A stretch of DNA of 64,000 bases from Pyrinomonadaceae bacterium (GTDB taxonomy: Bacteria; Acidobacteriota; Blastocatellia; Pyrinomonadales; Pyrinomonadaceae). A model generated the notes under the pieces. That model did no database searches. It was not told the origin of the DNA and saw only the letters and a list, made by a program, of their open reading frames with translations. The stretch spans positions 294-64,293 of the forward strand of contig DASVUF010000006.1 of the NCBI GenBank assembly GCA_036387195.1. Reading direction: 5' to 3'. Position 1 is the stretch's first letter. Each line of letters starts with the position of its first letter. Below are positions 13,912 to 64,000 of the stretch, one piece after another. The translations under genes were made by a program, and so were the position numbers.

Positions 13912-21102
<7,191 letters not shown>

Positions 21103-27806: not shown

Positions 27807-27837
27807 ACCGCTCCCGCGACAGAGGAAGTAACATCGT

Positions 27838-29691
27838 ATGTCAACCCGGAACGGCGCCCGCGTCGCCTCTCACGCCGCTTCGAGACTCGAACGGCTGCCG
27901 AAGAAATCAGGGCTTAACATAGTCGGAATTTCGACCGGCTATCATGATTCATCGTGCTGCCTGCTGCGGGACGGCCAGATGGTCGCCGCCGCGCAGGAGG
28001 AACGCTTCACGCGTGTGAAGAATGACAAGTCGCTCCCGAAGTGGGCGTTCCGTTATTGCCTTGAGGAGGCCGGGCTCACGATCTCTGACGTTGATTGCGT
28101 CGCCTACTACGAAGACCCGTGCCGCAAACTCGGCCGGCAGATATGGATGGGGATGATGCCCGGCCTGCCGGCGGAGAGGCGCGAGACGATATACGACCGG
28201 CTGGCGAGGACGCAGCCCCAGGAGCAGATACGCAAGCGGCTGGGCTACGAGGGGCGCATTGAAATCTCCGACCACCACCTCTCGCACGCCGCCAGCAGTT
28301 ACTACTTCTCGGGGTTCGGGGATGCGGCCGTCCTGACCGTAGATGGAGTCGGCGATTGGCCCACGACGAGCTACAACGTGGGCCGGGGGGCGCGCCTGGA
28401 GCGTTTCGAGCAGGTCGATTTCCCCGATTCGTTGGGCCTGTTCTACAGCGCCGTGACCAGCTACCTCGGCTTCGAGGTCAACGAAGGCGAGTACAAGGTG
28501 ATGGGGCTCGCGCCCTACGGCCAACCGCTCTACGCCAGGCAGCTCGGGAAGCTGGTGCAGGTGACCTCGGAAGGCCAATACCGCCTCGACATGAAGTATT
28601 TCGCCTTCCTCACGAAAGATTTGATGTACACGGAACACCTCTGTTCCCTGCTCGGGCAGCCGCCGCGAGAGCCGGAGTCAGAGATTACGCAGTTCCACAG
28701 CGACGTGGCGAAAAGCGCGCAGGTCGTGTTGGAGGAGATTCTTCTGGAAAAAACCCGCTACCTCCACAGCAAAGTCCCGAGTGAGAACCTCTGCATGGCG
28801 GGCGGCGTGGCTTTGAATGTGGTGGCCAACAGTCGGTGTTTGAGGGAGGGGCCGTTCAAGCGTCTGTTCGTGCAACCCGCCGCAGGCGACGCCGGCGGGG
28901 CCGTGGGGGCGGCCGCCATCGCGCACGTACGACTCACGGGGGAGGCGCCGACCGGCAAACAACAGGACCACGTCTACCTGGGCCCGGCTTTATCTTCCGC
29001 GGAAGTCCTTCAAATCTTGAAAAGCACCTCGGCCAAGTATCAGGATTTCCGCGGACGGGAAGAGGAGCTGATAGGCTTCACGGTTGACCGACTGGCCGAA
29101 GGGAAAGTAATCGGGTGGGCGCAGGGGCGCATGGAATTCGGCCCCCGGGCGCTCGGCTCTAGGTCTATCCTGGCCGACCCGCGCCGCCATGACATGAGAG
29201 ACAGGATTAACGCGCTGGTCAAGATGCGCGAGGCTTTCCGCCCCTTCGCCCCCGCCGTTCTGGAATCTGAGGCCGCCGGGCATTTCGCCCTGGATCACCC
29301 TTCGCCGTTCATGCTCGAAACCTGCCAGGTGACTTCGCCCGTCGAGCTGCCGGCCATAACGCATGTTGACGGCTCAGCGCGGGTGCAGACGGTGAGCGCC
29401 GAAACGAACCCACGGTTCGCCGCGCTGCTTGAGGAGTTCAAGCGGCGCACCGGGTGTCCCATTCTACTCAACACCTCCTTCAACATGCGCGGCGAGCCCA
29501 TCGTGTGCAACGCGGTCGACGCGCTGATATGTTTCGTCAGGTCCAACATTGACTTCCTCGTCATCGAGGACTTCATTATTGGGCGCGCAGGCATTCCGAT
29601 CTTGTGGGAGATTCTGGCCACACAGGGGGGCCAGAAACATAAGCTCGGCGAGGGCGAGGAGGTAGGCCACCTCGTCTACACTCTGCTGTAG
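27838..29691 (+). CDS. NodU/CmcH/TobZ-family carbamoyltransferase
   Basis: 'NIVGISTGYHDSSCCLLRDGQMVAAAQEERFTRVKNDKSLP', 'LTVDGVGDW', 'CMAGGVALN', 'FVQPAAGDAGGAVGAA', 'GRMEFGPRALGSRSILADPR', 'LLNTSFNMRGEPIV'. Confidence 0.9.
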   Translation: MSTRNGARVASHAASRLERLPKKSGLNIVGISTGYHDSSCCLLRDGQMVAAAQEERFTRVKNDKSLPKWAFRYCLEEAGLTISDVDCVAYYEDPCRKLGRQIWMGMMPGLPAERRETIYDRLARTQPQEQIRKRLGYEGRIEISDHHLSHAASSYYFSGFGDAAVLTVDGVGDWPTTSYNVGRGARLERFEQVDFPDSLGLFYSAVTSYLGFEVNEGEYKVMGLAPYGQPLYARQLGKLVQVTSEGQYRLDMKYFAFLTKDLMYTEHLCSLLGQPPREPESEITQFHSDVAKSAQVVLEEILLEKTRYLHSKVPSENLCMAGGVALNVVANSRCLREGPFKRLFVQPAAGDAGGAVGAAAIAHVRLTGEAPTGKQQDHVYLGPALSSAEVLQILKSTSAKYQDFRGREEELIGFTVDRLAEGKVIGWAQGRMEFGPRALGSRSILADPRRHDMRDRINALVKMREAFRPFAPAVLESEAAGHFALDHPSPFMLETCQVTSPVELPAITHVDGSARVQTVSAETNPRFAALLEEFKRRTGCPILLNTSFNMRGEPIVCNAVDALICFVRSNIDFLVIEDFIIGRAGIPILWEILATQGGQKHKLGEGEEVGHLVYTLL

Positions 29692-29713
29692 GGGCAGTAA
29701 GGAGACACGCCGC

Positions 29714-31894
29714 ATGGAACGCCCGCCAGAATTGCTCAAAGATGTCGCCGACCGGCTGGCCCGCGCCGTCGTCACGGAGGACGGCGCGCAAGTGACCCGC
29801 CTCCTGCGGCTCGCCGGGCTACTCGGGGACCCTTCGAGTCCCGCTCCCGAGCGGTCGCTGACTGACAATATCGGCGGCCGCGAAGGGGCGGGCGAGGCGC
29901 CCGCCGAATCGCCCTCCCCACCCCGAATCGGAATCTGGGAAGGAGAGCAGGTGAACGGCCGGACCTGTTTCGTCCGCCGCCAGGACATGATGGGAGAGTG
30001 GAGCTTCTGGGCGAACGTCGGGCGGATAGAGCCGAAAGGGGACAGACTCCGCATCCTCCTCCTCGGCGAGTCTGTCGCCCGCGGCTATCTTTACGACCCG
30101 TTGTTCAACATGGCCGGCGCGCTGGAGGAGGTCCTCCAATCCCAGCTCGGTGAGGATAACGTCGAGGTCATTGACCTGGCCCGTACGAACCTCGGCCTTG
30201 ACCTGACGGAACTCGCCAGGTCCGCCCTGCTTCTTGAGCCGGACGCGGCCATCATCTTTGCCGGAAACAACTGGAGCGTCCGTTACTACGGCCCGCACCC
30301 ATACGAGCGGGCGGCGCTGGATGCGCAGATACGCAGGCAGGGCGTGCCCGGGTTAAAGCGCGGCTTCGAAGAGCGTCTGGCGGAGCAAGCCAGGAGCGGG
30401 GTCAAAGAGATAGCCTCTCTTTATCAAGCCGAGGGGACGCCGCTGGTCTGGATGGTCCCGGAATTCAACCTCGGCGACTGGCGCGACCCGGTGGCCATCG
30501 CGCCTCACCTGTCGCGGGGAGGCAACCGGGAGTGGCTCGCCCTTTGGGACGGCGCTCGCGACGCCCTGCGCGATGGCGACTTCGAGACGGCCGCGGACCT
30601 GGCGAAGCAGATGGTTCAGCTTGACGGCGGGACCACGGCCACGGGTTTGTACATCCTGGCCGAGTGCAGTCAACAACTGGGCGACCCGGTCGCGGGCAGG
30701 CGCTACCTCGAACTGGCCCGGGACGCGACGATCTGGGACTGCTCCCGCGCCATCTCGCCGAGGCCGTACACCGTGACGCAGGAAGTTCTGCGCGAGGAGG
30801 CGGTAAGGAGCCGGAATGAGGTCGTGGATGTGCCTGAGGTTTTCAAAGAATACCTGGACGGGGGCATCCCTGACCGCCGCCTGTTCCTGGACTACTGCCA
30901 CCTAACGTCCGAGGGGATTCGAGTCGCCGCGGCGGCCGCCGCCTCTCGCGTGCTGCGCTTGCTTGAGGGGGTGGACATCCACTGGCGCGAGCTAGTGGAC
31001 AGGAGTGTAGCGCCGCCCCCTGAGGTGGAGGCGGAGGCGTCTTTCCTGGCCGCCGTACACAACGCGCACTGGGCGCAGCCCTTCGACGTGGTCCGCCACT
31101 ACTGTCTGAGGGCTGTCGAGTTGTCGCCGTCCGTCGCGCAAATCATGGTCCGTTTCCTTGACCTCCAGACCCGGAGTGCTCCGCTGATGATGTGCCGGTC
31201 GGCGGAAGAGATCGCCATGTGGGGGTCGGAGCTGATGCAGCACTACCTTCTTCACCATAACCGCCAGCAGTTAGACAAGACCCTCCTTGACGCCGTGGTC
31301 GGGGCACTGGAGGGGGCGGGCATCAACGCCGGCGGCCAACTCGCTCAGCTCCGCCGGGAAGAACACAGCGTGGCGTCGCGCGACGTCAACCTGCTGGATT
31401 ACTACTACGTGTCGTCCGCGCGCCAGGCGCAGGAAGAGACATGGCTGATACCTCAACTGCAAAAGTTGAATGAGGCGAAGAATTACTACACCGCCTATTT
31501 GCGCGAATCCAGGTTTTTCTTTGTCGGCGATGCGAACCGCCCCGTGCGGCTGCGCCTCACCTGCCGTCTGCCTGAGTCGGAGAGTGACGAGGGGGCCATC
31601 TCAATTGAGGTGAACGGCGGCCGCGTCGGGGACGCGGTCATCGGCCGCCAATGGAGCGCCTGGGAGATCGAAGTGGCCGGCGGCGAGGTGCGCGACGGCC
31701 TGAACGAAGTAGTCATCCGCTGGCCGACGCCGGCATTCCCCGGTGACAAGCTGTTCGAGTCCCTGATTGAACGCGTAACCGACAAATCCCTGCCGGAGTT
31801 CTTCTGCCCGTTCGGTGAAATATATGCCTTCTCGGCGTCGGACGCGGGCGACGGCTCTGACGTGATGAAGCAGCCGTCCCCGGCCGGACATTGA
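29714..31894 (+). CDS. SGNH/GDSL-fold hydrolase-like protein with a large C-terminal extension of unknown function
   Basis: Block I 'RILLLGESVARG', block III 'IIFAGNNW', block V 'LDYCHLTSEG' (D-x-x-H). The last ~300 aa have no motif I recognise. Confidence 0.5.
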   Translation: MERPPELLKDVADRLARAVVTEDGAQVTRLLRLAGLLGDPSSPAPERSLTDNIGGREGAGEAPAESPSPPRIGIWEGEQVNGRTCFVRRQDMMGEWSFWANVGRIEPKGDRLRILLLGESVARGYLYDPLFNMAGALEEVLQSQLGEDNVEVIDLARTNLGLDLTELARSALLLEPDAAIIFAGNNWSVRYYGPHPYERAALDAQIRRQGVPGLKRGFEERLAEQARSGVKEIASLYQAEGTPLVWMVPEFNLGDWRDPVAIAPHLSRGGNREWLALWDGARDALRDGDFETAADLAKQMVQLDGGTTATGLYILAECSQQLGDPVAGRRYLELARDATIWDCSRAISPRPYTVTQEVLREEAVRSRNEVVDVPEVFKEYLDGGIPDRRLFLDYCHLTSEGIRVAAAAAASRVLRLLEGVDIHWRELVDRSVAPPPEVEAEASFLAAVHNAHWAQPFDVVRHYCLRAVELSPSVAQIMVRFLDLQTRSAPLMMCRSAEEIAMWGSELMQHYLLHHNRQQLDKTLLDAVVGALEGAGINAGGQLAQLRREEHSVASRDVNLLDYYYVSSARQAQEETWLIPQLQKLNEAKNYYTAYLRESRFFFVGDANRPVRLRLTCRLPESESDEGAISIEVNGGRVGDAVIGRQWSAWEIEVAGGEVRDGLNEVVIRWPTPAFPGDKLFESLIERVTDKSLPEFFCPFGEIYAFSASDAGDGSDVMKQPSPAGH

Positions 31895-53837: not shown

Positions 53838-54668
53838 ATGGGATACATCACGACACGCGACGACACGAAGCTCTACGTAAAAGACTGGGGACGGGGGCGT
53901 CCCGTCATCCTCATGCACGGCTGGCCGCTCTCCGCGGATAGCTGGGATGACCAGGCGTTGGCGATTGCCGAAGCGGGTTTTCGCGCGGTCGCTTACGACC
54001 GACGCGGCTTCGGCCGGTCGGAACAACCGTGGGAGGGGTATAACTACGACACGCTGGCCGACGACTTGTCCGCCGTCATCGAGGAGACCGGCGCGACCGA
54101 CGCGGCCGTCGTCGGCTTCTCGATGGGGGGCGGCGAGGTCGCGCGCTACATGTCGCGCCACGGGGGGAAGAACGTCGCCCAGGCCGTGCTGGTTTCTTCG
54201 GTCGTGCCGTACATGCTCCAGACCGCGGACAACCCCGAAGGCGTCCCTCAGGCGACGTTCAATCAGATGACCGAAGGAATGAAAGAAGACCGCGCGCATT
54301 TCTTCGAGGGCTTTTTCAAGGATTTCTATGGCGTCGGGCTGGTGTCGCAGCCGGTGAGCGACGAGGTGCTGGCGTGGTCGCGGAACGTGGCGATGCAGGC
54401 GAGCCTCAAGGCGACGCTCGACTGCGCCGGGGCTTTCGCGATGACGGATTTCCGGCCCGACCTCGCAGCCTTCACGGCGCCGACTTTAATCATCCACGGG
54501 ACCGGCGATAAGACGGTGCCGATTGACGCGACCGGGCGCGCGGCGGCGCGCGGCATACCTCAGGCCGAGCTGATCGAGTACGACGGCGCGCCGCACGGAC
54601 TGTTCGCGACGCACAAGAATCGCTTGACGCATGACCTGCTCGCGTTTCTGACCCGGTCAACGCATTGA
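53838..54668 (+). CDS. Alpha/beta hydrolase, non-haem chloroperoxidase / arylesterase type
   Basis: 'TTRDDTKLYVKDWGRGRPVILMHGWPLSADSWD', 'AYDRRGFGRSEQP', nucleophile elbow 'GFSMGGGEV', 'IIHGTGDKTVP', 'GAPHGLF'. Confidence 0.9.
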   Translation: MGYITTRDDTKLYVKDWGRGRPVILMHGWPLSADSWDDQALAIAEAGFRAVAYDRRGFGRSEQPWEGYNYDTLADDLSAVIEETGATDAAVVGFSMGGGEVARYMSRHGGKNVAQAVLVSSVVPYMLQTADNPEGVPQATFNQMTEGMKEDRAHFFEGFFKDFYGVGLVSQPVSDEVLAWSRNVAMQASLKATLDCAGAFAMTDFRPDLAAFTAPTLIIHGTGDKTVPIDATGRAAARGIPQAELIEYDGAPHGLFATHKNRLTHDLLAFLTRSTH

Positions 54669-54689
54669 CTCGGCGCCTTACAACGGCCG

Positions 54690-55270
54690 AGCGGCCGCGT
54701 GGAAGGAGCGGAGGCATTGGGCGGCCCGCCATCTCCTCCGTATTGCCCTGTGGTCTTGCCGATAACATGGTCGAGATGCCCGACGCGCCCGAGTTTACAA
54801 TCTCGCGGCAAGACTTTTTCTTTAACTGAAGCAGCGAACGCCTCCGGGTATGAGGCGCGCCCGTCCGCGCCGACGGTGAACGGTAGCCGCCGGTGGTCGG
54901 CCCTCATTAGCTTCTTAAAGAAACGTTTCGCCGCGCAAACATCCCGCTTCGCGCCGAGCATGAATTCGATGGCGTCCCCGACGGAGCCGACTGCTCTGTA
55001 AAGATATTCCCACTCTTTACCGACCTCCACGCACATCTCGTCCAGCCTGGAAGAGGCGCCACTCATCTTTAAATGAGGGGGCGCCCGCTCGTTGATTTCC
55101 GGGGCGCATTTCTGGGCCCATCTCCACACAGTCGCATGCCCCGGGGAGAGAACCGCGCCCGCGCATCATCTCCCCCATGTCGCTGTAAGAGAAGCCGGTA
55201 GCGGCGGCGCCGCCTGACGCATAAAAGGATGGTGGCAGGCTCGAAGTGGCGCCACTTAAAGGGGATTTAT
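54690..55270 (-). pseudogene. IS6-family (IS26-like) DDE transposase pseudogene with frameshifts, a stop codon and loss of the C-terminus
   Basis: Reading the minus strand across three frames gives 'INP(+1 nt)FKWRHFEPATILLCVRRRRRY', 'GFSYSDMGEMMRGRG', then '(stop)..SPGHATVWRWAQKCAPEINER...SSRLDEMCVEVGKEWEYLYRAVGSVGDAIEFMLGAKRDVCAAKRFFKKLM...FTVGADGRASYPEAF...RVGHLDHVIG'. This tracks IS26 Tnp 'MNPFKGRHFQRDIILWAVRWYCKY-GISYRELQEMLAERG-VDHSTIYRWVQRYAP...WHMDETYVKVNGRWAYLYRAVD...INTDKAPAY' (recalled from memory). The start ATG is now ATA (55268-55270). The third catalytic acidic residue is lost ('IEQDH' -> 'VIGK'). The 3' end near 54690 is approximate. Confidence 0.8.
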
Positions 55271-55978: not shown

Positions 55979-58900
55979 ATGCCTAAAGATTTATCTTCCA
56001 GCGTTGAATTCCTGCGCCCGCCCGTCGGCCCGTCCTCGCGCGACGGCATCACCGGCGAGGTCGCGGAAAGCCTGGCCTTCGACGACCCGCGGCGGGTGAG
56101 CGCGCTAATACGCGCGTCGGACATGCGCCGCGCCGGCTCGCTGTCGGACAAAGGGTTCAGCGCCGCCGTCGCCGCCGAGTCGCTGACCTCGCTTGAGATC
56201 ATCATCGGCGAAAACAACATCCTGCCGGCCTGGTTTCTGGACGTGGCGCCGACCCGCTCGTCCGCGGTCTGTAAGATCGAAGCGGGCGGGACGAACTACA
56301 AAGGGGGCAGGGGGCGATGGGTCGGCACGGGCTTTCTTATCTCGGACAGCGTCCTCCTCACGAACCACCACGTCATCAACTCCCCGGACACGGCGCGCAA
56401 CGCCGAGTGCGTTTTTAACTACCAGCGCGACCCCGAGGGGAAAGACCTGCCCGTGAAGCGCTTCCGCCTGAACCCCGGCCGGCTGTTCCTGACGAGCCCG
56501 ACGCCGGGCGGCCTGGACTTCACCTTCGTCTGGGTGGAGGGCGCGCCCGGCAAGGAGTTCGGCATCGTGCCCTTCAACCGGGACTTCTTCGTCATTCAGG
56601 AGGGGGACGTCGCGAACATCATCCAGCACCCCGGGGGCGACTACAAGGGCGTGACCTTGCAGGAGAACAAGGTCATGCGGGTGGACGAGGCCCTTGTGCA
56701 TTACGTCTCCGACACGAAGCCGGGCAGCTCCGGGAGCTGCGTCTTCAACAACAGTTGGATGCCGTTCGCCCTGCACCACGCCAGCGCCGACAACGCCAGC
56801 CCGGGCGCGGCGAACCCCTCCAGGTACGTCAACGAAGGCATCAGGTTCTCGGCCATCGTCGCCTACCTGGAGAACCTCATGCGGGATGAGCCCGCGCGCA
56901 GGCAGGCCGTCGAAGAGATTCTCTCGCACGTCAACGGGACCGACTCGGTCCTGGGTCACTGGGGCGCCCTGGGACGCGCCGCCCCCGACTCGCGCCCCGC
57001 CGTCGAAACCGTGGTGAACATCTACAGAGGCGAGGCCGAGGACGTTGACGTGGGCTTCTGGAACGTCGGGTGGTTCACCCCGCGTTACAGCGAGAAGCTC
57101 CAGCGCGTGGCCGAGGTGTTCGTCAAGATGAACCTCGACATCTGGGTCTTCGAGGAGACGACGGCCGAGGCGGCGGGCGCGCTCGCCGCCTACCTGCGGG
57201 ACGCCTACCACCTCGACTTCGTGTGCGAATTCTCCGAGCCGGACCCGCAGCCCGGCGCGCAGACGACCGCGGTGATGTGGAATCGGAAGACGGTCGAGGG
57301 GCGGAAGGCCGAATGGCCGGCCGAGATAGACGAGTGGTTCAGCGCGCGCGCAGAGGACTTCGACGACCTCCGCCGGGAGGGGGCCGAGGGCCGTATGTTC
57401 GAACGCCGCCCCGCGCTCTTCCGCTTCTCGAACAAGGGCGGCGCCGCGTTCGACTTCTTCCTGGCGCCGCTCCACCTCAAGGCGCAGGACGGAGGAGGGA
57501 AGCGGCGCGTGGCGGCGGCCATCCTCGCCGCGGCCGTCGGCAGGATGGTCGAGCAGCAGGGGGCCGACCGCGACTGGGTTATCGGCGGCGACTTTGACGC
57601 GCCGCTGGCGAACGAGGACTTCGGCAAGCTGGTCGCCGGCGGCATGACGGCGCTGAGCGCCGGGGGCGGGCAGGGCGGCGCGTTCTCCTACGTCAAGGGG
57701 CCGAACTCGCCCGTCGAACACGTCTTCCTCTCGCCGAACCTGTCCGAGACTTACGGGGGCGAAGACTTCTTCATCGTGGCCCGGGACAAAGAGATTCCCG
57801 ACTACCTGACGGCGCTCGGCGGCCACAGCCCGGTGCTGGTCAGACTCAGCATCCGGGGCGACCAGCCTAAAAACGAAAGGGGACATATGACGGACGGGAA
57901 AAGACTGTCTGACTCGCTGCGCGACAAGTTATCCGGCCTCGACCTGGGGGTCGGCGTCGGCTCGGCGCGCCCCGCGCCGGACGCGGACGGTGACGGTGAC
58001 GGTGACGGTGACTCCGCCGCGCTGCGCATCCCGCTGACCGTGACCGTGAGCGGCGACGAGGTGAGCCTCTCGGCGCGCATCAGCGTGCGGGAGTTGAAGG
58101 GGCTGCTGGCGGGCGCTTCGCCCGGCGTGGTCGAGGAGGCCGTGAGCATAGACCCCGACTACGGCAGCCGGCAGGGGTACGACCCGGACTTCCTCGGCGC
58201 GGGCAAGCGGCGCGTCCCGCTGCCGCAGTTGTCGGCCGCCTTGAAGGCCAGGGCCGCGGTCAACAGCAAGGCCGCCGGCGGCGACAGGCACGTGCTGCCT
58301 TACCACCACTACAGCGTGGTGATGAACAGGGAGCGGCGGCTGGCCTTCTTCACCGCCGTCAACATTGACGGGAGCGTCTTCTACAACATCAAGCGCGAGC
58401 CGGACAAGTGGTACTTCGACCCGCGCATCGGGAAGGACGAGCAGACCGGCAACGAGGTCTACGCCAACAACCCGCTCGACCGCGGCCACCTCGTGCGCCG
58501 CCTCGACCCGGCCTGGGGCGAGTCGCGCGAGCTGGCGAAGGTGGCCAACGACGACACCTTCCACTTCACCAACTGCTCGCCGCAGCATCACGACTTCAAC
58601 GCCGGCAAGTCGCTCTGGGCCGGCCTCGAAGACTACATCCTGAAGAACGCCGACGCGCTGGACTTTAAAGTCTCGGTCTTCACCGGCCCGGTCTTCAGCA
58701 AAGACGACGACGCATACCGCGGCGTGCAATTGCCGCGGCAGTTCTGGAAGGTCGTCGTCATGGTCAAGGGCGACGGGAAACTGTCCGCGACCGGCTACCT
58801 CCTGAGCCAGGAGACGCTGCTCCAGGGCATCGGCGAGGAGGCGTTCGTGCCCGAGGACAAGGAGGCCTTCTCCTACGGGGCTTACAAGACGTTCCAGACG

Positions 58901-59053
58901 CCCGTGCGGAGGATCGAGAAGCTGACCGGGCTGAGCTTCGGCCAGCTACGTAATTTCGACCCGAAGAACCACCTGGAAAGCGACCTGGAGGGGCTCGAAG
59001 CCCTCGACCTCCGACAGGCGACGCTGGACGATTACAAGGACATCAAGTTCTGA
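55979..59053 (+). CDS. Three-enzyme fusion: trypsin-fold serine protease - EEP (DNase I-like endo/exonuclease/phosphatase) - DNA/RNA non-specific endonuclease (beta-beta-alpha-Me, Endonuclease_NS)
   Basis: Protease (~56189-56875): 'GTGFLISDSVLLTNHHVI', 'LDFTFVWV', 'NIIQHPGG', 'GSSGSCVF'. EEP (~57038-57856): 'DVGFWNVGWF', 'LDIWVFEET', 'FLAPLHLKA', 'VIGGDFDAPL', 'GGHSPVLVRL'. EndoNS (~58283-58945): 'YHHYSVVMNRERRLAFFTAVNIDG', 'DRGHLVRR' (58478-58501), 'FTNCSPQHHDFNAGKSLWAGLEDYI'. AAGGAG lies at 55966-55971, 7 nt before ATG 55979; the ORF track starts at GTG 55976. Confidence 0.85.
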   Translation: MPKDLSSSVEFLRPPVGPSSRDGITGEVAESLAFDDPRRVSALIRASDMRRAGSLSDKGFSAAVAAESLTSLEIIIGENNILPAWFLDVAPTRSSAVCKIEAGGTNYKGGRGRWVGTGFLISDSVLLTNHHVINSPDTARNAECVFNYQRDPEGKDLPVKRFRLNPGRLFLTSPTPGGLDFTFVWVEGAPGKEFGIVPFNRDFFVIQEGDVANIIQHPGGDYKGVTLQENKVMRVDEALVHYVSDTKPGSSGSCVFNNSWMPFALHHASADNASPGAANPSRYVNEGIRFSAIVAYLENLMRDEPARRQAVEEILSHVNGTDSVLGHWGALGRAAPDSRPAVETVVNIYRGEAEDVDVGFWNVGWFTPRYSEKLQRVAEVFVKMNLDIWVFEETTAEAAGALAAYLRDAYHLDFVCEFSEPDPQPGAQTTAVMWNRKTVEGRKAEWPAEIDEWFSARAEDFDDLRREGAEGRMFERRPALFRFSNKGGAAFDFFLAPLHLKAQDGGGKRRVAAAILAAAVGRMVEQQGADRDWVIGGDFDAPLANEDFGKLVAGGMTALSAGGGQGGAFSYVKGPNSPVEHVFLSPNLSETYGGEDFFIVARDKEIPDYLTALGGHSPVLVRLSIRGDQPKNERGHMTDGKRLSDSLRDKLSGLDLGVGVGSARPAPDADGDGDGDGDSAALRIPLTVTVSGDEVSLSARISVRELKGLLAGASPGVVEEAVSIDPDYGSRQGYDPDFLGAGKRRVPLPQLSAALKARAAVNSKAAGGDRHVLPYHHYSVVMNRERRLAFFTAVNIDGSVFYNIKREPDKWYFDPRIGKDEQTGNEVYANNPLDRGHLVRRLDPAWGESRELAKVANDDTFHFTNCSPQHHDFNAGKSLWAGLEDYILKNADALDFKVSVFTGPVFSKDDDAYRGVQLPRQFWKVVVMVKGDGKLSATGYLLSQETLLQGIGEEAFVPEDKEAFSYGAYKTFQTPVRRIEKLTGLSFGQLRNFDPKNHLESDLEGLEALDLRQATLDDYKDIKF
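57980..58012 (+). repeat. In-frame GGT-GAC microsatellite encoding an Asp-Gly repeat linker (DADGDGDGDGD)
   Basis: 'gacgcggacggtgacggtgacggtgacggtgac' between the EEP and EndoNS domains. Confidence 0.9.
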
Positions 59054-59197: not shown

Positions 59198-59713
59198 ATG
59201 GCTGGCGAGGGTTTTGAGGCGGGCTGGACCGGCTCCAAGGCAAAAGCCGTGCTCTCCTTCGCGCAAGGGGTCGTGCCGCTGGTCATCGCCGTGGCGGTTC
59301 TGCTCATCTTCTGGGGTCTGGTCAAATCTATGATGGGTTTGACGAAGGCTCCGGAGTTAGAATGGAATCGCGCCGCGTACCTGTTCTCGGGGGTGGAGGC
59401 GATAGCCTACGCCGCCGCCGGTTTCCTTTTCGGGAGGGAGGTGCACCGCCAGCGCGCCGAGCAGGCCGAGCAGCGCGCCGGCAGCGAGCAGCAGCGCGCC
59501 TCCGAAGCCGAAAAGAAGGCCACCGAAGAGACGACCAAGGGCCAGACCCTCAGGCGGGTCATCGAGGCCAAGAAGTCCACACGGCTCGAACGCGCGCCCG
59601 ACATGGAGGGGCTTGAGAGTTTTCAGGCCGGCGGCGGCCCGGCGCAGGCGGCGGGGCAGTCGGACATTGACGAGCTGTCGAGAGTCTCCAGCGAGCTGTT
59701 CCCTTACAACTGA
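59198..59713 (+). CDS. Small two-TM membrane protein with a charged coiled-coil C-terminal tail (unknown family)
   Basis: TM1 'VLSFAQGVVPLVIAVAVLLIFWGLV', TM2 'AAYLFSGVEAIAYAAAGFLFG', then 'REVHRQRAEQAEQRAGSEQQRASEAEKKATEE'. AAGGAG lies at 59183-59188, 9 nt before ATG 59198; the ORF-track TTG 59189 has no spacing to it. Confidence 0.7.
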   Translation: MAGEGFEAGWTGSKAKAVLSFAQGVVPLVIAVAVLLIFWGLVKSMMGLTKAPELEWNRAAYLFSGVEAIAYAAAGFLFGREVHRQRAEQAEQRAGSEQQRASEAEKKATEETTKGQTLRRVIEAKKSTRLERAPDMEGLESFQAGGGPAQAAGQSDIDELSRVSSELFPYN

Positions 59714-59880
59714 CGCGGGGACCGCACAGCGCGCGCCGGCCGAAATTCATAACGACCTTAAGACTCTTTGAAGGGGTAGTGTGATGGCGCCGGCCGGGTC
59801 GCGCCGGCGTAAGGTGTATGAACTGCCCGACGCGGTGGCCGCCGAAGAGCCCCGCGCCTTCGTGTAGAGGGGCTGCGAAT

Positions 59881-60861
59881 ATGGCGTCGAGAGAAACCCT
59901 GACGGCTTTAAATTATGTCCTCGCCGGCCTGTACCCCTTCCCCGCCGATTCCTACAGAATCGTTGAAGAGGCCGGCATACCGCCGCAGGTCGTCGCTTTC
60001 AGGCCCAAGGCCATAGACACCTGGTACGAAATCCTCCGCGCCGCCAACAACATGGGGCGCGTGCTCGACGTGGTGCGGGCGGCGCTCAACGAACACCCCG
60101 AGAACCCCTTGCTCATACAGGCCGGGAAGGGCGAAATAAAGCAGACGCCGGCCCCCGTCGTGGGCACAGACCTGCCCTGGAAGGGCGACCTCTCCGCGGA
60201 CGCCCTGGAGAGGATCATGGGGAGTCAGAGCACGCTCCTGCCCGTCAGCTTTCTTGAGGTCGGCGTGCTGCAATCCCGGACCGTGGCCAAGGTTCAGTTC
60301 GCCGGCGGCGAGAGCGGGTCGGGCTTTCTTCTGAAAGACAACCTCTTCGTCACCAACCACCACGTCATCCCCGACCGCGAGCGAGCCGCGGTCGCGGAAC
60401 TCCTGTTCAACTACCAGAAGTCGGCGGCCGGCCTCGACCTCCAGCCGAGCAGCCGCAGGCTCGACCCCGAAAGCGGCTTCGCCACCTCCGACGAGCACGA
60501 CTGGACGCTCGTCCGCGTGGACGGCGACGCCAACGCCGAGTGGGGCGCCATCGAAATCAGGGAGGTTGACGTGAGTGTGGCCGAGAGGGTGAACATCATC
60601 CAGCACCCGGGCGGCGGGCCGAAACAGATAGCCCTCTATCACAACGTCGTCGCCTACGTCGGCGAAAACCGCATCCAGTACCTGACCGACACCCTGCCGG
60701 GCTCTTCCGGCTCGCCCGTCTTCGACAGCAAGTGGCAGGTCGTCGCCCTCCACCGCAGCGGCGGCTGGATACTCGAACCGGGGACGAAGAACCACGTCTT
60801 CCGGAACGAGGGGATTAACATCAACCGCGTGGTGCAGGGCCTGAGAGCAGCCGGGTTGTGA
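59881..60861 (+). CDS. Adaptor (effector-associated/death-like helical domain) fused to a trypsin-fold serine protease
   Basis: The N-terminal ~80 aa are helical and alignable without gaps to the N-terminus of the next gene. Protease 'GSGFLLKDNLFVTNHHVI', 'HDWTLVRV', 'NIIQHPGG', 'LPGSSGSPVF', 'VVALHRSGG'. I chose ATG 59881; the ORF track's upstream 21 codons (from 59818) are Pro/Arg-rich. Confidence 0.8.
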   Translation: MASRETLTALNYVLAGLYPFPADSYRIVEEAGIPPQVVAFRPKAIDTWYEILRAANNMGRVLDVVRAALNEHPENPLLIQAGKGEIKQTPAPVVGTDLPWKGDLSADALERIMGSQSTLLPVSFLEVGVLQSRTVAKVQFAGGESGSGFLLKDNLFVTNHHVIPDRERAAVAELLFNYQKSAAGLDLQPSSRRLDPESGFATSDEHDWTLVRVDGDANAEWGAIEIREVDVSVAERVNIIQHPGGGPKQIALYHNVVAYVGENRIQYLTDTLPGSSGSPVFDSKWQVVALHRSGGWILEPGTKNHVFRNEGININRVVQGLRAAGL

Positions 60862-60866
60862 GCGGT

Positions 60867-63368
60867 ATGGGCTGGACGCCGGAGCTAACCAGAATCAGGG
60901 ACATCCTCGCCAGACTCTACCCTCACAAGGAAGAGCTGCCCAGGCTCGTCGAGGACGCCGGCATGGCGCTGGAGTTGGTCGAACTCGACGGCACGGCGAG
61001 CGCCGCCTGGCACGACATCATAAAAAAGGCGGTCGCGGGCGGCCGGCTCGACGCCCTGGTCGGCGAGTGCGTCAAGTCCGCCGCCGACGCCGAGCTGCGG
61101 GGGGCCTATCAGGACTACCTCGCCGCCGCGCGCCGCCCCGGAGCCGCGCCCGCCGCCGCCCTCCACGCCCCGCCGCCCCTCCAGCCCCCCACGCTCATCG
61201 GCCGCGACGCCGAGGTGCAGACCTTAAAGGAACTCCTGCGCGAGCCCGAGACGCGCCTGCTGACGCTGACCGGGCCCAGCGGCGTGGGCAAGACGGCGCT
61301 GGCCAAGCGCCTGGCGGTAGACCTCGCCAAAGAGTTCGCGGACGGCGTGACCTTCGTCGAGCTGGGCGCGCTCCGCAACCACGAGGCCGCGCCGGGCGAG
61401 GTCGCCGGCGTGATGTGGGACTACAAGCAGACCGTAGACATCCCCCTAATAAGTTTCCTGCAGGACAAGCGGCGGCTGATAGTCCTTGACGGCTTCGAGG
61501 CCGTCATCAAGGCCACGCCGTTCGTTAAGACCCTGCTCGGGAATTGCCCCGGCGTAAAAATCATCATCACCAGCCAGCAGCCCCTCGCCTGTGAGGACGA
61601 AGAACTCTCCCTGCTGGAGAAAAGATACATCGTCACGCCGCTCTCGTACCCCGGCGCGGGCGGCCAGTCGCCCGAGGTCACGGCGGCCGAGTCGGCGGCC
61701 GTCAAGCTCTTCGTCGCCCACGCGGAGGCGATAAAAGGCAAAGGCAAACTCGACCTCGGCCCCGCGAACATGGAGGCCATCGTGGCCATCTGCAGCGAGG
61801 TCAACGGGCTCCCGCTCTGCATACAGATACTGGCCAGCTTCATCAGCATCTTTAACGACCCGCCGGCCTTGCTGGAGTTTCTGAGGCGGGAGGGCTTCGC
61901 GCAGCTCGACGAGGAGCAGCACCTCTCGAAGGCCATAGACATCAGGCACGCCAGCCTCAAGCCGGACGACCAAATCCTCTTCAGGCGGCTGGCGGTGTTC
62001 GCCGACTGGTGTTCGTTGCAGGCCATCAGGGAAGTGTGCGCGTCGGCCGGCGGAAAGACCGTCCCGGTCGTGACCACCCTGAGACGGCTGGTTGACGGGA
62101 GCTTTGTGCAGTCGGAAGGCGGGCGGTACAGGATGCTTCAGGTCATCCGCGAGAGCGCGCGCGAGCACCTGAAGTCGAGCGGCGAGGCCGACGACCTCCG
62201 GATGAGATTCGTGGAGCACTACCTGGCAGTCGCCAGGGAGGCGGAGCCGAAACTTAAGACGCCTGAACGCGCCGCGCAGCTACAGGAACTCCAGCGGGAC
62301 TACGGAAACTTCCGGGCCGTGTTCGACTGGAGCGCCACCCCGAAGGGGAGCCCGGAGGCGGGGCTGTCGCTGGCCGGCTCGCTCTTCTGGTACTGGAACT
62401 TCATGGGCTACCTCCGCGAGGGGCAGCGGCGCGTGCAGAAGGCCGTGCGCCTGGCCGCCCCGCAAGCGCCCTCTGCGCCGCTGGCGAAGGCGCTGTACTG
62501 TGACGGCGGCCTGACGTTCCTCCTCGGCGACTACAGGGAGGCGCAGAGGCAGCTCGACAAGAGCGCCGAGGCGTGGAACGCCGTCGGCGACGAGGCCGGC
62601 CTCGCCTACGCGCTGATAGTGCTCGGCATGGTCAGGAAGGAGATAGGCGAAGACCTCGACTCGGCGCGCGAGCACGAGGAGAAGAGCGTACGACTGCTGG
62701 CGGGGCGCGACGAGTGGGGGCACGCGCTCGCGCTCAACGACCTCGGGAACGTGCTGGCGGCGCAGGGGCTTCACGGCGAGGCGCGGCGAAGTTACGAAGA
62801 GAGCAAAGCGATGTGGGGGCGGCTGAAGGACACCTGGGGACTGTCGCTGACCCTGAGCAACCTCAGTTCGCTGGAGTGCAAGGAGCAGAACTACGGCGTG
62901 GCCTACGACCTGATGCGGGACGCGCTCAAACTCCAGCTCGAGGCGGGCGATAAGTGGGGCCGGGCCTGGTCGCTCAAGGGAATCGGCGAGGCGAAACTGG
63001 GCATGAAGGACTACGCGGCCGCGGCCTCGCACTTCTACGAGAGTTACCGCCTGCACTCCGACCTGGGCCGAAAGCAGTTGATAGCGGAGTGCTTGGAGGG
63101 ACTGGCGAAGGTCGCCGCGGGGCTCGGTCAGGAGTCGCGGGCCGCGTCCCTGCACGGGGCGGCGGAAAGCCTCCGCGAGCAGTCGGGGAGCAGCATGTCC
63201 TCCGCAAAGGATAGGGAGTATGATGGCCTCGTGAATCGCCTGCGCCTCGACATGGGCATGAAGGCTTTCGAGAGGGCCCGGGCCGAAGGGCGCGCGTGGA
63301 CTGAGGAGCGGTTGCAGCAGCAGGTTCAGTCCTACGCCCTCGACCTTCAAGGCGGCGCAGGCCCCTGA
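60867..63368 (+). CDS. STAND NTPase: adaptor domain - NB-ARC-type P-loop NTPase - TPR/helical-repeat sensor
   Basis: 'LIGRDAEVQTLKELL', Walker A 'LTGPSGVGKTALAKRLA' (61272-61295), Walker B 'RLIVLDGFE' (61476-61499), 'IIITSQQPL', 'GLPLCIQILASFI'. The C-terminal ~370 aa are TPR-like repeats ('WYWNFMGYLREGQ', 'GDEAGLAYALIVLGMV', 'WGHALALNDLGNVL', 'TWGLSLTLSNLSSL', 'WGRAWSLKGIGEA'). With ATG 60867, 'LYP' falls at residues 17-19, exactly as in the preceding gene. GTG 60858 (GTGA overlap with that gene's stop) is the alternative. Confidence 0.85.
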   Translation: MGWTPELTRIRDILARLYPHKEELPRLVEDAGMALELVELDGTASAAWHDIIKKAVAGGRLDALVGECVKSAADAELRGAYQDYLAAARRPGAAPAAALHAPPPLQPPTLIGRDAEVQTLKELLREPETRLLTLTGPSGVGKTALAKRLAVDLAKEFADGVTFVELGALRNHEAAPGEVAGVMWDYKQTVDIPLISFLQDKRRLIVLDGFEAVIKATPFVKTLLGNCPGVKIIITSQQPLACEDEELSLLEKRYIVTPLSYPGAGGQSPEVTAAESAAVKLFVAHAEAIKGKGKLDLGPANMEAIVAICSEVNGLPLCIQILASFISIFNDPPALLEFLRREGFAQLDEEQHLSKAIDIRHASLKPDDQILFRRLAVFADWCSLQAIREVCASAGGKTVPVVTTLRRLVDGSFVQSEGGRYRMLQVIRESAREHLKSSGEADDLRMRFVEHYLAVAREAEPKLKTPERAAQLQELQRDYGNFRAVFDWSATPKGSPEAGLSLAGSLFWYWNFMGYLREGQRRVQKAVRLAAPQAPSAPLAKALYCDGGLTFLLGDYREAQRQLDKSAEAWNAVGDEAGLAYALIVLGMVRKEIGEDLDSAREHEEKSVRLLAGRDEWGHALALNDLGNVLAAQGLHGEARRSYEESKAMWGRLKDTWGLSLTLSNLSSLECKEQNYGVAYDLMRDALKLQLEAGDKWGRAWSLKGIGEAKLGMKDYAAAASHFYESYRLHSDLGRKQLIAECLEGLAKVAAGLGQESRAASLHGAAESLREQSGSSMSSAKDREYDGLVNRLRLDMGMKAFERARAEGRAWTEERLQQQVQSYALDLQGGAGP

Positions 63369-63442
63369 TAAGCCGCGGACAGGCTTCCGCCCCGCCCGCG
63401 GGGCCACGGCCGCGGCGGCAATCTCTTCGGTGTGAGGCGCAG

Positions 63443-64000
63443 ATGGAACATGAAGGGAGTTCGTCGAAGGATGAACCCGTCACGCTGGCGTCGGCCGCCG
63501 GCTCCCCCTTCCGCTTTACCGTCGGCGTCACGCCGGCCCGGGGCGCGGGCCCCCGCGCCCTCTCGTTCGAGGTCACGGGGCCGGAGCCCTCGGGCGGCTC
63601 TTTAAAGACGCGCCGCTACCACCTGCCCGACGCGGGGCACAACTCCTATCTGGACTTGTTCCTGAGCCTAGCGCGCGACTTCGGAGCGCGCGTCCCGCGT
63701 AACCGACGCCCGTCAGTCGAACCCTCCTTCAAGGCGAAGTACCGCGCGCTCCTGACCGAGAACCTGGCCCCGGGCGTCGTCTACGGCTACGGCGACCCGG
63801 GGGTGCTTCGCCTGGAGGCGGGGGCCGGCGGCGAGGAGGGCGTCTGGTATTACATCGTCGTCACCTCGAACGACGCCCCCGACTCGTTCCCCATCATCCG
63901 CTCGCGCGACCTCGCGAGTTGGGAGTTCGCGGGCTTCGTCTTCCCGAAGGGCCGGAAGCCGGCGTGGGCGGCGGACGGCGAACACGTCAGCGACTTCTGG
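63443..64000 (+). CDS. GH43-like glycoside hydrolase (five-bladed beta-propeller family), 3'-truncated by the window end
   Basis: Hand translation from ATG 63443 runs open to base 64000 (186 codons): '...GVVYGYGDPGVLRLEAG...GVWYYIVVTSNDAPDSFPIIRSRDLASWEFAGFVFP...DFW', the GH43-style 'GDP.v....g.yY...TS....' start. It is absent from the ORF track because it has no stop. Confidence 0.6.
   Translation, partial: MEHEGSSSKDEPVTLASAAGSPFRFTVGVTPARGAGPRALSFEVTGPEPSGGSLKTRRYHLPDAGHNSYLDLFLSLARDFGARVPRNRRPSVEPSFKAKYRALLTENLAPGVVYGYGDPGVLRLEAGAGGEEGVWYYIVVTSNDAPDSFPIIRSRDLASWEFAGFVFPKGRKPAWAADGEHVSDFW

Follow-up and report, generated by a model that had tools for sequence, protein, structure and literature searches.

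Two adjoining genes with a common adaptor domain

The window considered here is a 64,000-nucleotide stretch of contig DASVUF010000006.1 from a Pyrinomonadaceae bacterium. Towards its end, two adjoining genes, here called genes 3 and 4, encode a protease and a STAND NTPase that begin with the same short domain, EAD1, one of the effector-associated domains (EADs). Gene 3 (59881..60861, + strand; 326 aa) joins EAD1 to a trypsin-like (V8/Glu-endopeptidase-like, S1) serine protease, with Pfam scores of 35.9 bits for EAD1 and 83.8 bits for Trypsin_2. Gene 4 (60867..63368, + strand; 833 aa) joins it to an NB-ARC/NACHT-like STAND NTPase and a TPR region that is presumed to be the sensor (Pfam EAD1, AAA_16, NACHT, NB-ARC and four TPR_12 matches). 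The two genes are tightly linked on the same strand, with 5 nt between the stop codon of gene 3 and the ATG of gene 4. The locus probably belongs to a kind of system that Kaur et al. 2020 catalogued, a protease regulated by a STAND protein and coupled to it by EAD1, and would work by the four-step mechanism set out below.

A sequence-only reading of this DNA had proposed that one module heads both proteins, followed by a protease in one and a P-loop NTPase in the other, an order that Pfam confirms for both genes. It had also counted 20 identical positions in the first 60 residues. The count was reproduced in an ungapped alignment from the ATGs at 59881 and 60867, and rises to 22 over residues 1-85. 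A BLASTP comparison of the first 95 residues of each protein, with composition-adjusted statistics, gave E = 1e-9 and 35% identity over 55 residues without gaps. Against 5000 composition-preserving shuffles, the Smith-Waterman score of 84 stands far above the controls (23.5 +/- 4.2, maximum 51; z = 14), and shuffled sequences reached a mean of 4.2 and a maximum of 13 identities in 60 ungapped positions. Both N-termini also match the Pfam EAD1 profile (PF19955) above its gathering cut-off of 24.2 bits: gene 3 at residues 3-80 (59887..60120, +) with 35.9 bits and gene 4 at residues 5-81 (60879..61109, +) with 36.0 bits. A chance or compositional likeness between two helical, Ala/Leu-rich N-termini in a GC-rich genome, which the fall-off in identity past residue 60 might favour, is vanishingly improbable, being ruled out by the shuffles, by BLASTP and by an independent, curated Pfam profile that recognises both copies.

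EADs were defined as small terminal domains that occur both on a core, NTPase-type component and on an adjacent effector, and homotypic binding was suggested as the link between the two; none of them is as widespread as EAD1 (Kaur et al. 2020, eLife, PMC7159879). The view of the module as a homotypic coupling adaptor, put forward from the sequence alone, had thus already been published in the same form (PMC7159879). Both copies fit the definition of an EAD as small, terminal and non-enzymatic, being N-terminal, about 80 aa long and all-alpha in their AlphaFold2 (AF2) models. The locus also follows the EAD pattern, with one copy on a core NTPase and one on an effector enzyme encoded by adjoining genes. 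Residues L10, L14, L17 and W48 of the gene 3 copy are invariant among 36 homologues compared. An iterated EAD1 profile built for this analysis found just these two copies in the window, and neither it nor Pfam detected a further EAD on gene 1 (a protease-nuclease fusion described below) or elsewhere in the 64 kb; gene 1 indeed does not carry the module, as had been claimed.

Beyond the adaptor, both proteins have the motifs of working enzymes. In gene 3, the Trypsin_2 catalytic domain spans residues 146-290 (60316..60750, +) and contains the motifs TNHH at 158, DWT at 207 and GSSGS at 274. The catalytic residues H161, D207 and S276 are invariant across the 36 homologues, and the active site is, judging by these residues, intact. 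Among solved structures, glutamyl endopeptidases match best (E 1e-7). Homologues number at least 1996, and a 326-aa protein identical to that of gene 3 has been recorded from a Pyrinomonadaceae metagenome-assembled genome. The start codon is supported by homologue lengths of 325-330 aa and by their N-terminus, MAWNETL.

In gene 4, the P-loop NTPase core covers residues ~110-260 (61194..61646, +), with intact Walker A (GPSGVGKT at 136) and Walker B (LIVLDG at 204) motifs. The presumed TPR sensor covers residues ~598-791 (62658..63239, +) and matches TPR_12 in four stretches as well as TPR_10 and TPR_MalT. The start codon is again supported, as orthologues begin with M(N/D/E)WT..L. Pfam found neither a trypsin nor a Death-like domain in this protein. 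Its STAND core is ~30-35% identical to proteins whose precomputed Pfam lists include HTH, LuxR, SARP, cyclase or kinase domains. If those output domains are N-terminal, as is usual for such regulators, EAD1 would by analogy fill the output slot of the STAND protein.

Recurrence of the EAD1 pairing

The sequence-only reading had predicted that the module should recur on NTPase and effector partners in other genomes. Supporting this, a scan of one genome per species retrieved 80 loci encoding gene 3 relatives, spread over Acidobacteriota, Chloroflexota, Myxococcota, Bacteroidota, Alphaproteobacteria, Actinomycetota and Cyanobacteria. An EAD1-trypsin gene is present in 68 of the 80. Among these, 63 loci are informative, having flanks of at least 1.5 kb on each side, or else a partner already seen, and 54 of the 63 encode a second EAD1 open reading frame (ORF) within 3 kb of the EAD1-protease; in one further locus the second EAD1 ORF lies beyond 3 kb. 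Extra EAD1 ORFs are 44-fold denser inside 3 kb than beyond it (0.18/kb vs 0.004/kb). Of 66 nearby copies, 58 share the strand of the protease gene and lie downstream of it, which is also the arrangement in the window. The EAD1 model of Pfam itself recognises 54 of 69 partner ORFs.

The partners are varied. They include STAND NTPase-TPR proteins (7), large WD40 proteins with a C-terminal EAD1, EAD1-SIR2, EAD1-TIR-NACHT-TPR and EAD1-cyclase-STAND-TPR proteins, small EAD1+EAD2 adaptor proteins and many proteins without a recognised domain. Such diversity is expected of a portable adaptor. Some loci have three or four EAD1 genes. Pairs from the same locus tend to resemble each other more than pairs drawn across loci (35% vs 27% identity), with the own partner at a median rank of 6 of 58 and among the top five in 28 of 58 cases. 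Recent duplication or gene conversion between the two EAD1 copies of the window was also considered and is unsupported, as the own partner ranks only 25th of 58 there.

Two loci have features of their own. In Sinorhizobium meliloti, a cultured and tractable rhizobium, the conjugative plasmid pCpl (locus L094; NZ_CP085526.1, 159794-167488) encodes an EAD1-trypsin followed by an EAD1-bearing 714-aa protein, and the pair adjoins CHAT and S8 peptidase genes. Locus L006 also encodes, at its positions 16647-20085, an iSTAND/MoxR/vWA ternary system in which the iSTAND protein carries EAD1 (profile E 4e-20); one protease may serve several EAD1-bearing sensors in that genome.

Orthologous loci and a lost adaptor gene

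The closest orthologous loci retain the same protease/STAND pair, and the module is present on both partners, as had been anticipated. Three contigs (L089, L090 and a contig from JGI) encode gene 3 orthologues of 70-84% identity and gene 4 orthologues of 55-73% identity, and all three keep the 5-nt spacing between the two genes and the downstream GH43 gene. L089 in addition keeps gene 2, a small gene upstream of the protease, in the order gene 2, protease, STAND and GH43.

A DNA alignment of the window with L089 falls into two collinear blocks, at 59242-59775 and 59811-64000. The gap between them, at window 59775-59811, corresponds to L089 3694-4378, so that ~680 bp is missing in the window. 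In L089 this stretch encodes most of a 243-aa protein with an EAD-like C-terminus (gene at L089 3703-4434), which is also found in L090 and L006. The C-terminus matches the EAD1 profile with independent E-values of 5e-5 (L090) and 4e-3 (L089) and the full Pfam EAD7 model at E 0.003. In the more distant L006 it is 89% identical, following a different N-terminal part. A relic of this third adaptor gene, comprising its last ~20 codons and stop, lies in the window at 59805-59867 (+), as seen in the DNA alignment to L089. It reads RRKVYELPDAVAAEEPRAFV, and its L089 counterpart reads RGKVEELLDAAAAEHPRAFT. The relic sits inside the 168-nt spacer between gene 2 and gene 3 (59714-59880) and ends 13 nt before the gene 3 ATG, as in L089. 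The window has therefore lost a third, EAD1/EAD7-like adaptor gene by a deletion of ~680 bp, and its relatives keep that gene.

Upstream of gene 2 the loci are wholly different. The window has gene 1 there. L089 has genes on the opposite strand with caspase-like and astacin-like motifs, as read from their translations. In L006, which has a protease of 82% identity to gene 3, this position holds an opposite-strand trypsin-PLD fusion and a caspase-trypsin fusion, with the iSTAND/MoxR/vWA system farther along.

Upstream genes and surroundings

Gene 1 (55979..59053, + strand; 1024 aa) encodes a fusion of a trypsin-like protease, an EEP-type nuclease/phosphatase and a NucA nuclease, for which Pfam gives Trypsin_2 at 117-261, Exo_endo_phos at 362-589 and Endonuclease_NS at 766-989 (182 bits). 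The motifs TNHH and GSSGS, and DRGH and NCSPQ of NucA, are intact. The trypsin domains of genes 1 and 3 share 39% identity (E 1e-37). Across the family, a Trypsin-EEP core of ~650 aa is constant and the C-terminal modules are swapped, including NucA, Endonuclease_1, lipases, subtilase and cell-wall amidases. A constant core with exchangeable C-termini is the pattern of a polymorphic effector.

Gene 2 (59198..59713, + strand; 171 aa) encodes a small protein with two hydrophobic stretches, probably membrane helices, and a charged tail. It has no family match in Pfam, PADLOC or NCBIfam. Its orthologue in L089 is 78% identical, and substitutions between the two are in excess at the third codon position (20/24/49 by codon position). 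Gene 2-like proteins occurred in two of the first 88 loci, and the L089 orthologue was found later. Gene 2 was also considered as a conserved partner of gene 1, a candidate set aside because the 171-aa ORF that follows the gene 1 orthologue of locus L091 is not homologous to it. Promoter and terminator scans of 54.6-64 kb performed no better than shuffles, so that operon structure here rests on spacing and conservation only.

The genes flanking genes 1-4 are housekeeping-like (GH43, alpha/beta-hydrolase). A truncated IS6/IS240-type DDE transposase lies at 54560-55129 (-), ~850 bp upstream of gene 1, and covers positions 3-87 of the 139 of Pfam DDE_Tnp_IS240. The G+C content is 0.65-0.68 in 54-64 kb and ~0.72 in most of the window. 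Together, the IS6 remnant and the G+C content suggest that the variable region was acquired or rearranged. Elsewhere, window positions 25104-31894 encode a protein with a lantibiotic-dehydratase N-terminal domain (25104-27806), a carbamoyltransferase (27838-29691) and then a 726-aa protein without a family match. A G+C dip (0.63-0.65 at 28-32 kb) coincides with these three genes. This region may be a cluster for a ribosomally synthesised and post-translationally modified peptide (RiPP) or another natural product.

Relation to described systems

The nearest described relative is the NucA-peptidase system, "System 3" of Kaur, Burroughs, Iyer & Aravind (PMC7159879). In this system, trypsin and NucA occur in one protein or are encoded together, EAD1 may be attached to one of the trypsin paralogues, the operon contains additional EAD1 proteins, a STAND NTPase may be present and a proteolytic cascade that deploys NucA was proposed (PMC7159879). 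The window resembles it in having EAD1 on the NTPase and on the adjoining trypsin, a trypsin paralogue fused to NucA, a STAND protein and, among its relatives, varying partners. Genes 1, 3 and 4 between them provide its core, namely NucA fused to trypsin along with several trypsin paralogues, and an EAD1-trypsin next to another EAD1 protein. There are three differences. The published examples are mostly alphaproteobacterial, a form also shown by the Mesorhizobium loci L024 and L035, whereas the host of the window is an acidobacterium. The published STAND carries bDLD2 and trypsin, whereas gene 4 has EAD1 and TPR and no protease. Finally, the NucA protein of the window, gene 1, also contains an EEP domain. 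Pairs of EAD-STAND and EAD-trypsin proteins are likewise mentioned in work after Kaur et al. 2020.

A comparable layout is found in bacterial CARD-NLR systems, which defend against phage. In Lysobacter and Pedobacter these pair an NLR-like ATPase with a trypsin-like protease whose N-terminal domain is CARD-like (Wein et al., PMC10312443; PDB 8SRZ, 8SS1), and Azospirillum-type CARD-NLR operons, in which the ATPase has C-terminal repeats, are described alike. The N-terminal helical domain of the protease is essential (PMC10312443). In the published operons the effectors are fused to a second trypsin-like protease, and in Lysobacter the NLR's own C-terminal CARD-like domain acts as an auto-repressor. 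In the Caulobacter LypABC system, the LypA CARD binds the N-terminal domain of the LypB ATPase in two-hybrid assays, and LypC joins trypsin and endonuclease domains in one protein (Banks et al. 2026, PMC13236601). The window shares with these systems a protease with a helical adaptor (~80-100 aa) ahead of its trypsin domain, a STAND ATPase whose C-terminus bears TPR-like repeats, and an effector, nuclease or phospholipase, that is often fused to a second trypsin. Genes 3, 4 and 1 thus reproduce the three-part CARD-NLR layout, of which gene 1 is not kept in L089. The two differ in that EAD1 has no sequence match to 8SRZ or 8SS1 at E <= 10, with a structural likeness that is sub-threshold, and in that the protease-binding domain of their NLR is another helical domain of ~150 aa, whereas both window partners carry EAD1.

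Two further comparisons concern the logic of activation. Like animal apoptosomes and inflammasomes, the locus combines a STAND protein with a repeat sensor, expected to oligomerise, and a small N-terminal helical domain in common with the protease that would recruit and activate it, as for the Apaf-1 CARD with the caspase-9 CARD, or the NLR PYD/CARD with ASC and caspase-1. It differs from them in that the protease is trypsin-like and not a caspase, any kinship between EAD1 and the Death fold is tentative and the effector is a nuclease fusion. Protease-gated pro-nucleases have also been described in Avs/AVAST and Hachiman (Tuck et al. 2025, PMC12799240). There, too, a trypsin-like protease controlled by a sensor ATPase activates a nuclease by cleavage; in contrast to the window, the protease is fused to the sensor, the nuclease is a separately encoded MBL-fold protein and there is no adaptor domain.

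The fold of EAD1

The sequence-only reading had compared the module with Death and CARD domains. AF2 models of both copies were obtained with a mean predicted local distance difference test (pLDDT) score of 87 for gene 3 and 85.5 for gene 4. The gene 3 model has helices at 2-17, 21-30, 44-57, 61-71 and 76-85 and a short turn at 35-37, and the gene 4 model repeats this pattern of a long helix, a helix, a 3-residue turn and three helices. A Foldseek search of both models against the PDB returned nothing at E <= 0.001, so the analogy gains no significant structural match. What does stand in its favour is a set of sub-threshold neighbours with the Death fold, at TM-scores of 0.39-0.55 and E > 2. 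With the gene 3 model, rank 9 is taken by 8SRZ, the death-like domain from Lysobacter (E 7.2, TM 0.39/0.41). For gene 4, eight of the nine matches with TM >= 0.43 are Death-fold or pyrin-like domains, all below threshold at E > 2. These include the CASP8 DED, the CARDs of Apaf-1 (0.53/0.54) and CARD8 (0.51/0.55), the PYDs of AIM2 and ASC and the pyrin-like N-terminal domain of CENP-N; the ninth match is 9ijj_4X (TMq 0.49).

A sequence link to the solved CARD-like domains was also sought and rejected, as neither phmmer with each EAD1 copy nor a 33-sequence profile, run against all PDB chains, found 8SRZ or 8SS1 at E <= 10. These EAD1 searches returned only spurious weak matches, such as the protein A Z-domain and designed repeats. 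A Death-like fold is therefore weakly suggested by the models, with matches that are suggestive for gene 4 alone, as a lead and not as membership of the family. It is somewhat unlikely that EAD1 belongs, as a cryptic and strongly diverged member, to the Death-fold domains, resembling a PYD whose helix 3 is very short. If it were, the protease/STAND pairing would be truly homotypic Death-fold NLR-protease recruitment in bacteria, closer to apoptosome and inflammasome logic than the bacterial CARD-NLRs, whose NLR docking domain is no CARD. In that case, fast evolution of the STAND EAD1 (see below) could mirror an arms race with decoy adaptor proteins.

Proposed mechanism and alternatives

In the proposed mechanism, gene 4 would act as sensor and switch, its TPR repeats binding a trigger that is most likely an invader-derived molecule. 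The NB-ARC/NACHT-like NTPase would then oligomerise in an NTP-dependent manner, clustering the N-terminal EAD1 domains. The clustered domains would bind the EAD1 of gene 3, and the protease, being locally concentrated, would be activated by induced proximity, the principle by which CARD-CARD contacts activate caspase-9 on the apoptosome. Finally, the active gene 3 protease would cleave downstream targets, the best local candidate being gene 1, and processing of gene 1 could unleash its non-specific nucleases and so kill or arrest the cell.

The sequences themselves establish which domains are present, that the catalytic and NTP-binding motifs are intact, that the two genes are closely linked and that EAD1 pairs recur in several phyla; the meeting of the EAD1 domains, proximity activation, the trigger and the part played by gene 1 are inferred. 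Also in favour of the account are the essential N-terminal domain of the CARD-NLR proteases, the two-hybrid contact in LypABC, the pro-nucleases of Avs and Hachiman and the L093 cluster described below. Several observations weigh against it. In eight of the 63 informative loci, an EAD1-protease has no second EAD1 inside 10 kb. The EAD1 pair of the window is unexceptional, with its own partner placed only 25th and 29-33% identity. The two copies also diverge unevenly: compared with L089, the STAND EAD1 is 62% identical and the protease EAD1 80%, with 32 non-synonymous and 9 synonymous codon changes and no third-position excess in the former, and 17 and 21 in the latter. The STAND EAD1 is thus diverging far faster than the protease EAD1, which is contrary to simple one-to-one co-evolution; constraint may have been relaxed, or the adaptor of the sensor may be under diversifying selection. 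Gene 1 is absent from L089, which is the closest orthologous locus with upstream sequence, and gene 1 orthologues in L091 and in L092 (an Azospirillum genome) have no EAD pair nearby. PADLOC-DB v2 and NCBIfam gave no system-level match and no Avs model, so that the locus is not recognised as a known defence system; PADLOC returned partial matches only, to the protease part of RT-Protease_XI and to generic TPR and P-loop models. Literature searches, which did not ask the question directly, found no experimental EAD1-EAD1 binding and no experiment that probes sensor-effector coupling by EAD1.

One alternative concerns the place of gene 1. Genes 3 and 4, probably with gene 2, may form the whole system, and gene 1 may be an independent, toxin-like neighbour in a variable slot that is neither cleaved by the pair nor acts for it. 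This is a real possibility, though less likely than not. L089 keeps gene 2, protease, STAND and GH43 next to other, opposite-strand genes upstream, and L006 has its opposite-strand trypsin-PLD fusion there instead. The orthologues in L091 and L092 do without an EAD pair, the constant Trypsin-EEP module with its many C-terminal effectors resembles a self-contained polymorphic effector, and the truncated IS6 transposase lies just upstream. Against independence, locus L093 (2547-12036) encodes a gene 1 orthologue of 70% identity in a same-strand cluster after a STAND NTPase, an EAD5-trypsin and an astacin-like protein. L093 is a three-part layout as in the window, built with another adaptor family, EAD5. 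In addition, NucA genes flank EAD1-trypsin genes in four alphaproteobacterial loci (including Mesorhizobium) and one Pedobacter locus, the effectors of CARD-NLR systems and LypC pair a trypsin-like protease with the effector in one protein, and the trypsin domain of gene 1 resembles that of gene 3. The suggestion that gene 1 is a proteolytic substrate or downstream effector is accordingly supported in part. The L093 cluster speaks for it, and L089 and the relatives that lack an EAD pair speak against a fixed association, leaving gene 1 a plausible downstream effector and not an obligatory one.

A second alternative concerns the biological role. The locus could be a switch for regulated proteolysis that is not antiviral, serving, for example, cell death in development or directed at kin, gene transfer through lysis, or signalling. 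The likeness of the gene 4 STAND core to HTH/LuxR/SARP-type regulators would fit such a role, as would flanks that are housekeeping-like and not a defence island, and the lack of a PADLOC match. This is nonetheless unlikely, as the effectors around related loci (NucA, PLD, SIR2, TIR and caspase) are typical of abortive infection and the related CARD-NLR systems defend against phage. It would also alter the biological role and leave the molecular mechanism as it is.

Thirdly, the two EAD1 domains may not be mutual binders and may serve in auto-inhibition, in self-oligomerisation into filaments or in docking to a third EAD protein. Precedents exist: the Lysobacter NLR's own C-terminal CARD-like domain acts as an auto-repressor, and in LypABC the protease CARD makes a heterotypic contact with a non-CARD N-terminal domain of the NLR. 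In relatives of the window, a third EAD-like protein is encoded after gene 2 and ahead of the protease; there are loci with three or four EAD1 genes, and the two copies in the window differ greatly in their rate of evolution. On the other side, both neighbours carry EAD1 in 54 of 63 loci whatever the other domains of the partner, a recurrence that is most simply explained by like-with-like binding, and own-locus pairs are overall more similar than cross-locus ones. Lack of mutual binding is therefore distinctly unlikely, and EAD1-EAD1 contact between the STAND protein and the protease is the preferred reading.

Implications

The conclusions drawn earlier from the sequence of this locus essentially agree with the literature, as supported by the comparisons above. 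The locus is an acidobacterial member of a described class and no new kind of system. Its variations are minor, namely EAD1 on a TPR-STAND protein, an EEP-NucA effector fusion and the loss of the third adaptor gene. Little is therefore added as discovery, as EAD1 is in Pfam and already in the public annotation of these proteins, and both architecture and mechanism were proposed in 2020.

The locus is nevertheless a compact example for testing EAD1 coupling, in which a single sensor NTPase and a single protease are accompanied by a candidate effector of protease-nuclease type. Tractable relatives, such as the pair on the Sinorhizobium meliloti conjugative plasmid, could help to test like-with-like EAD1 coupling directly.

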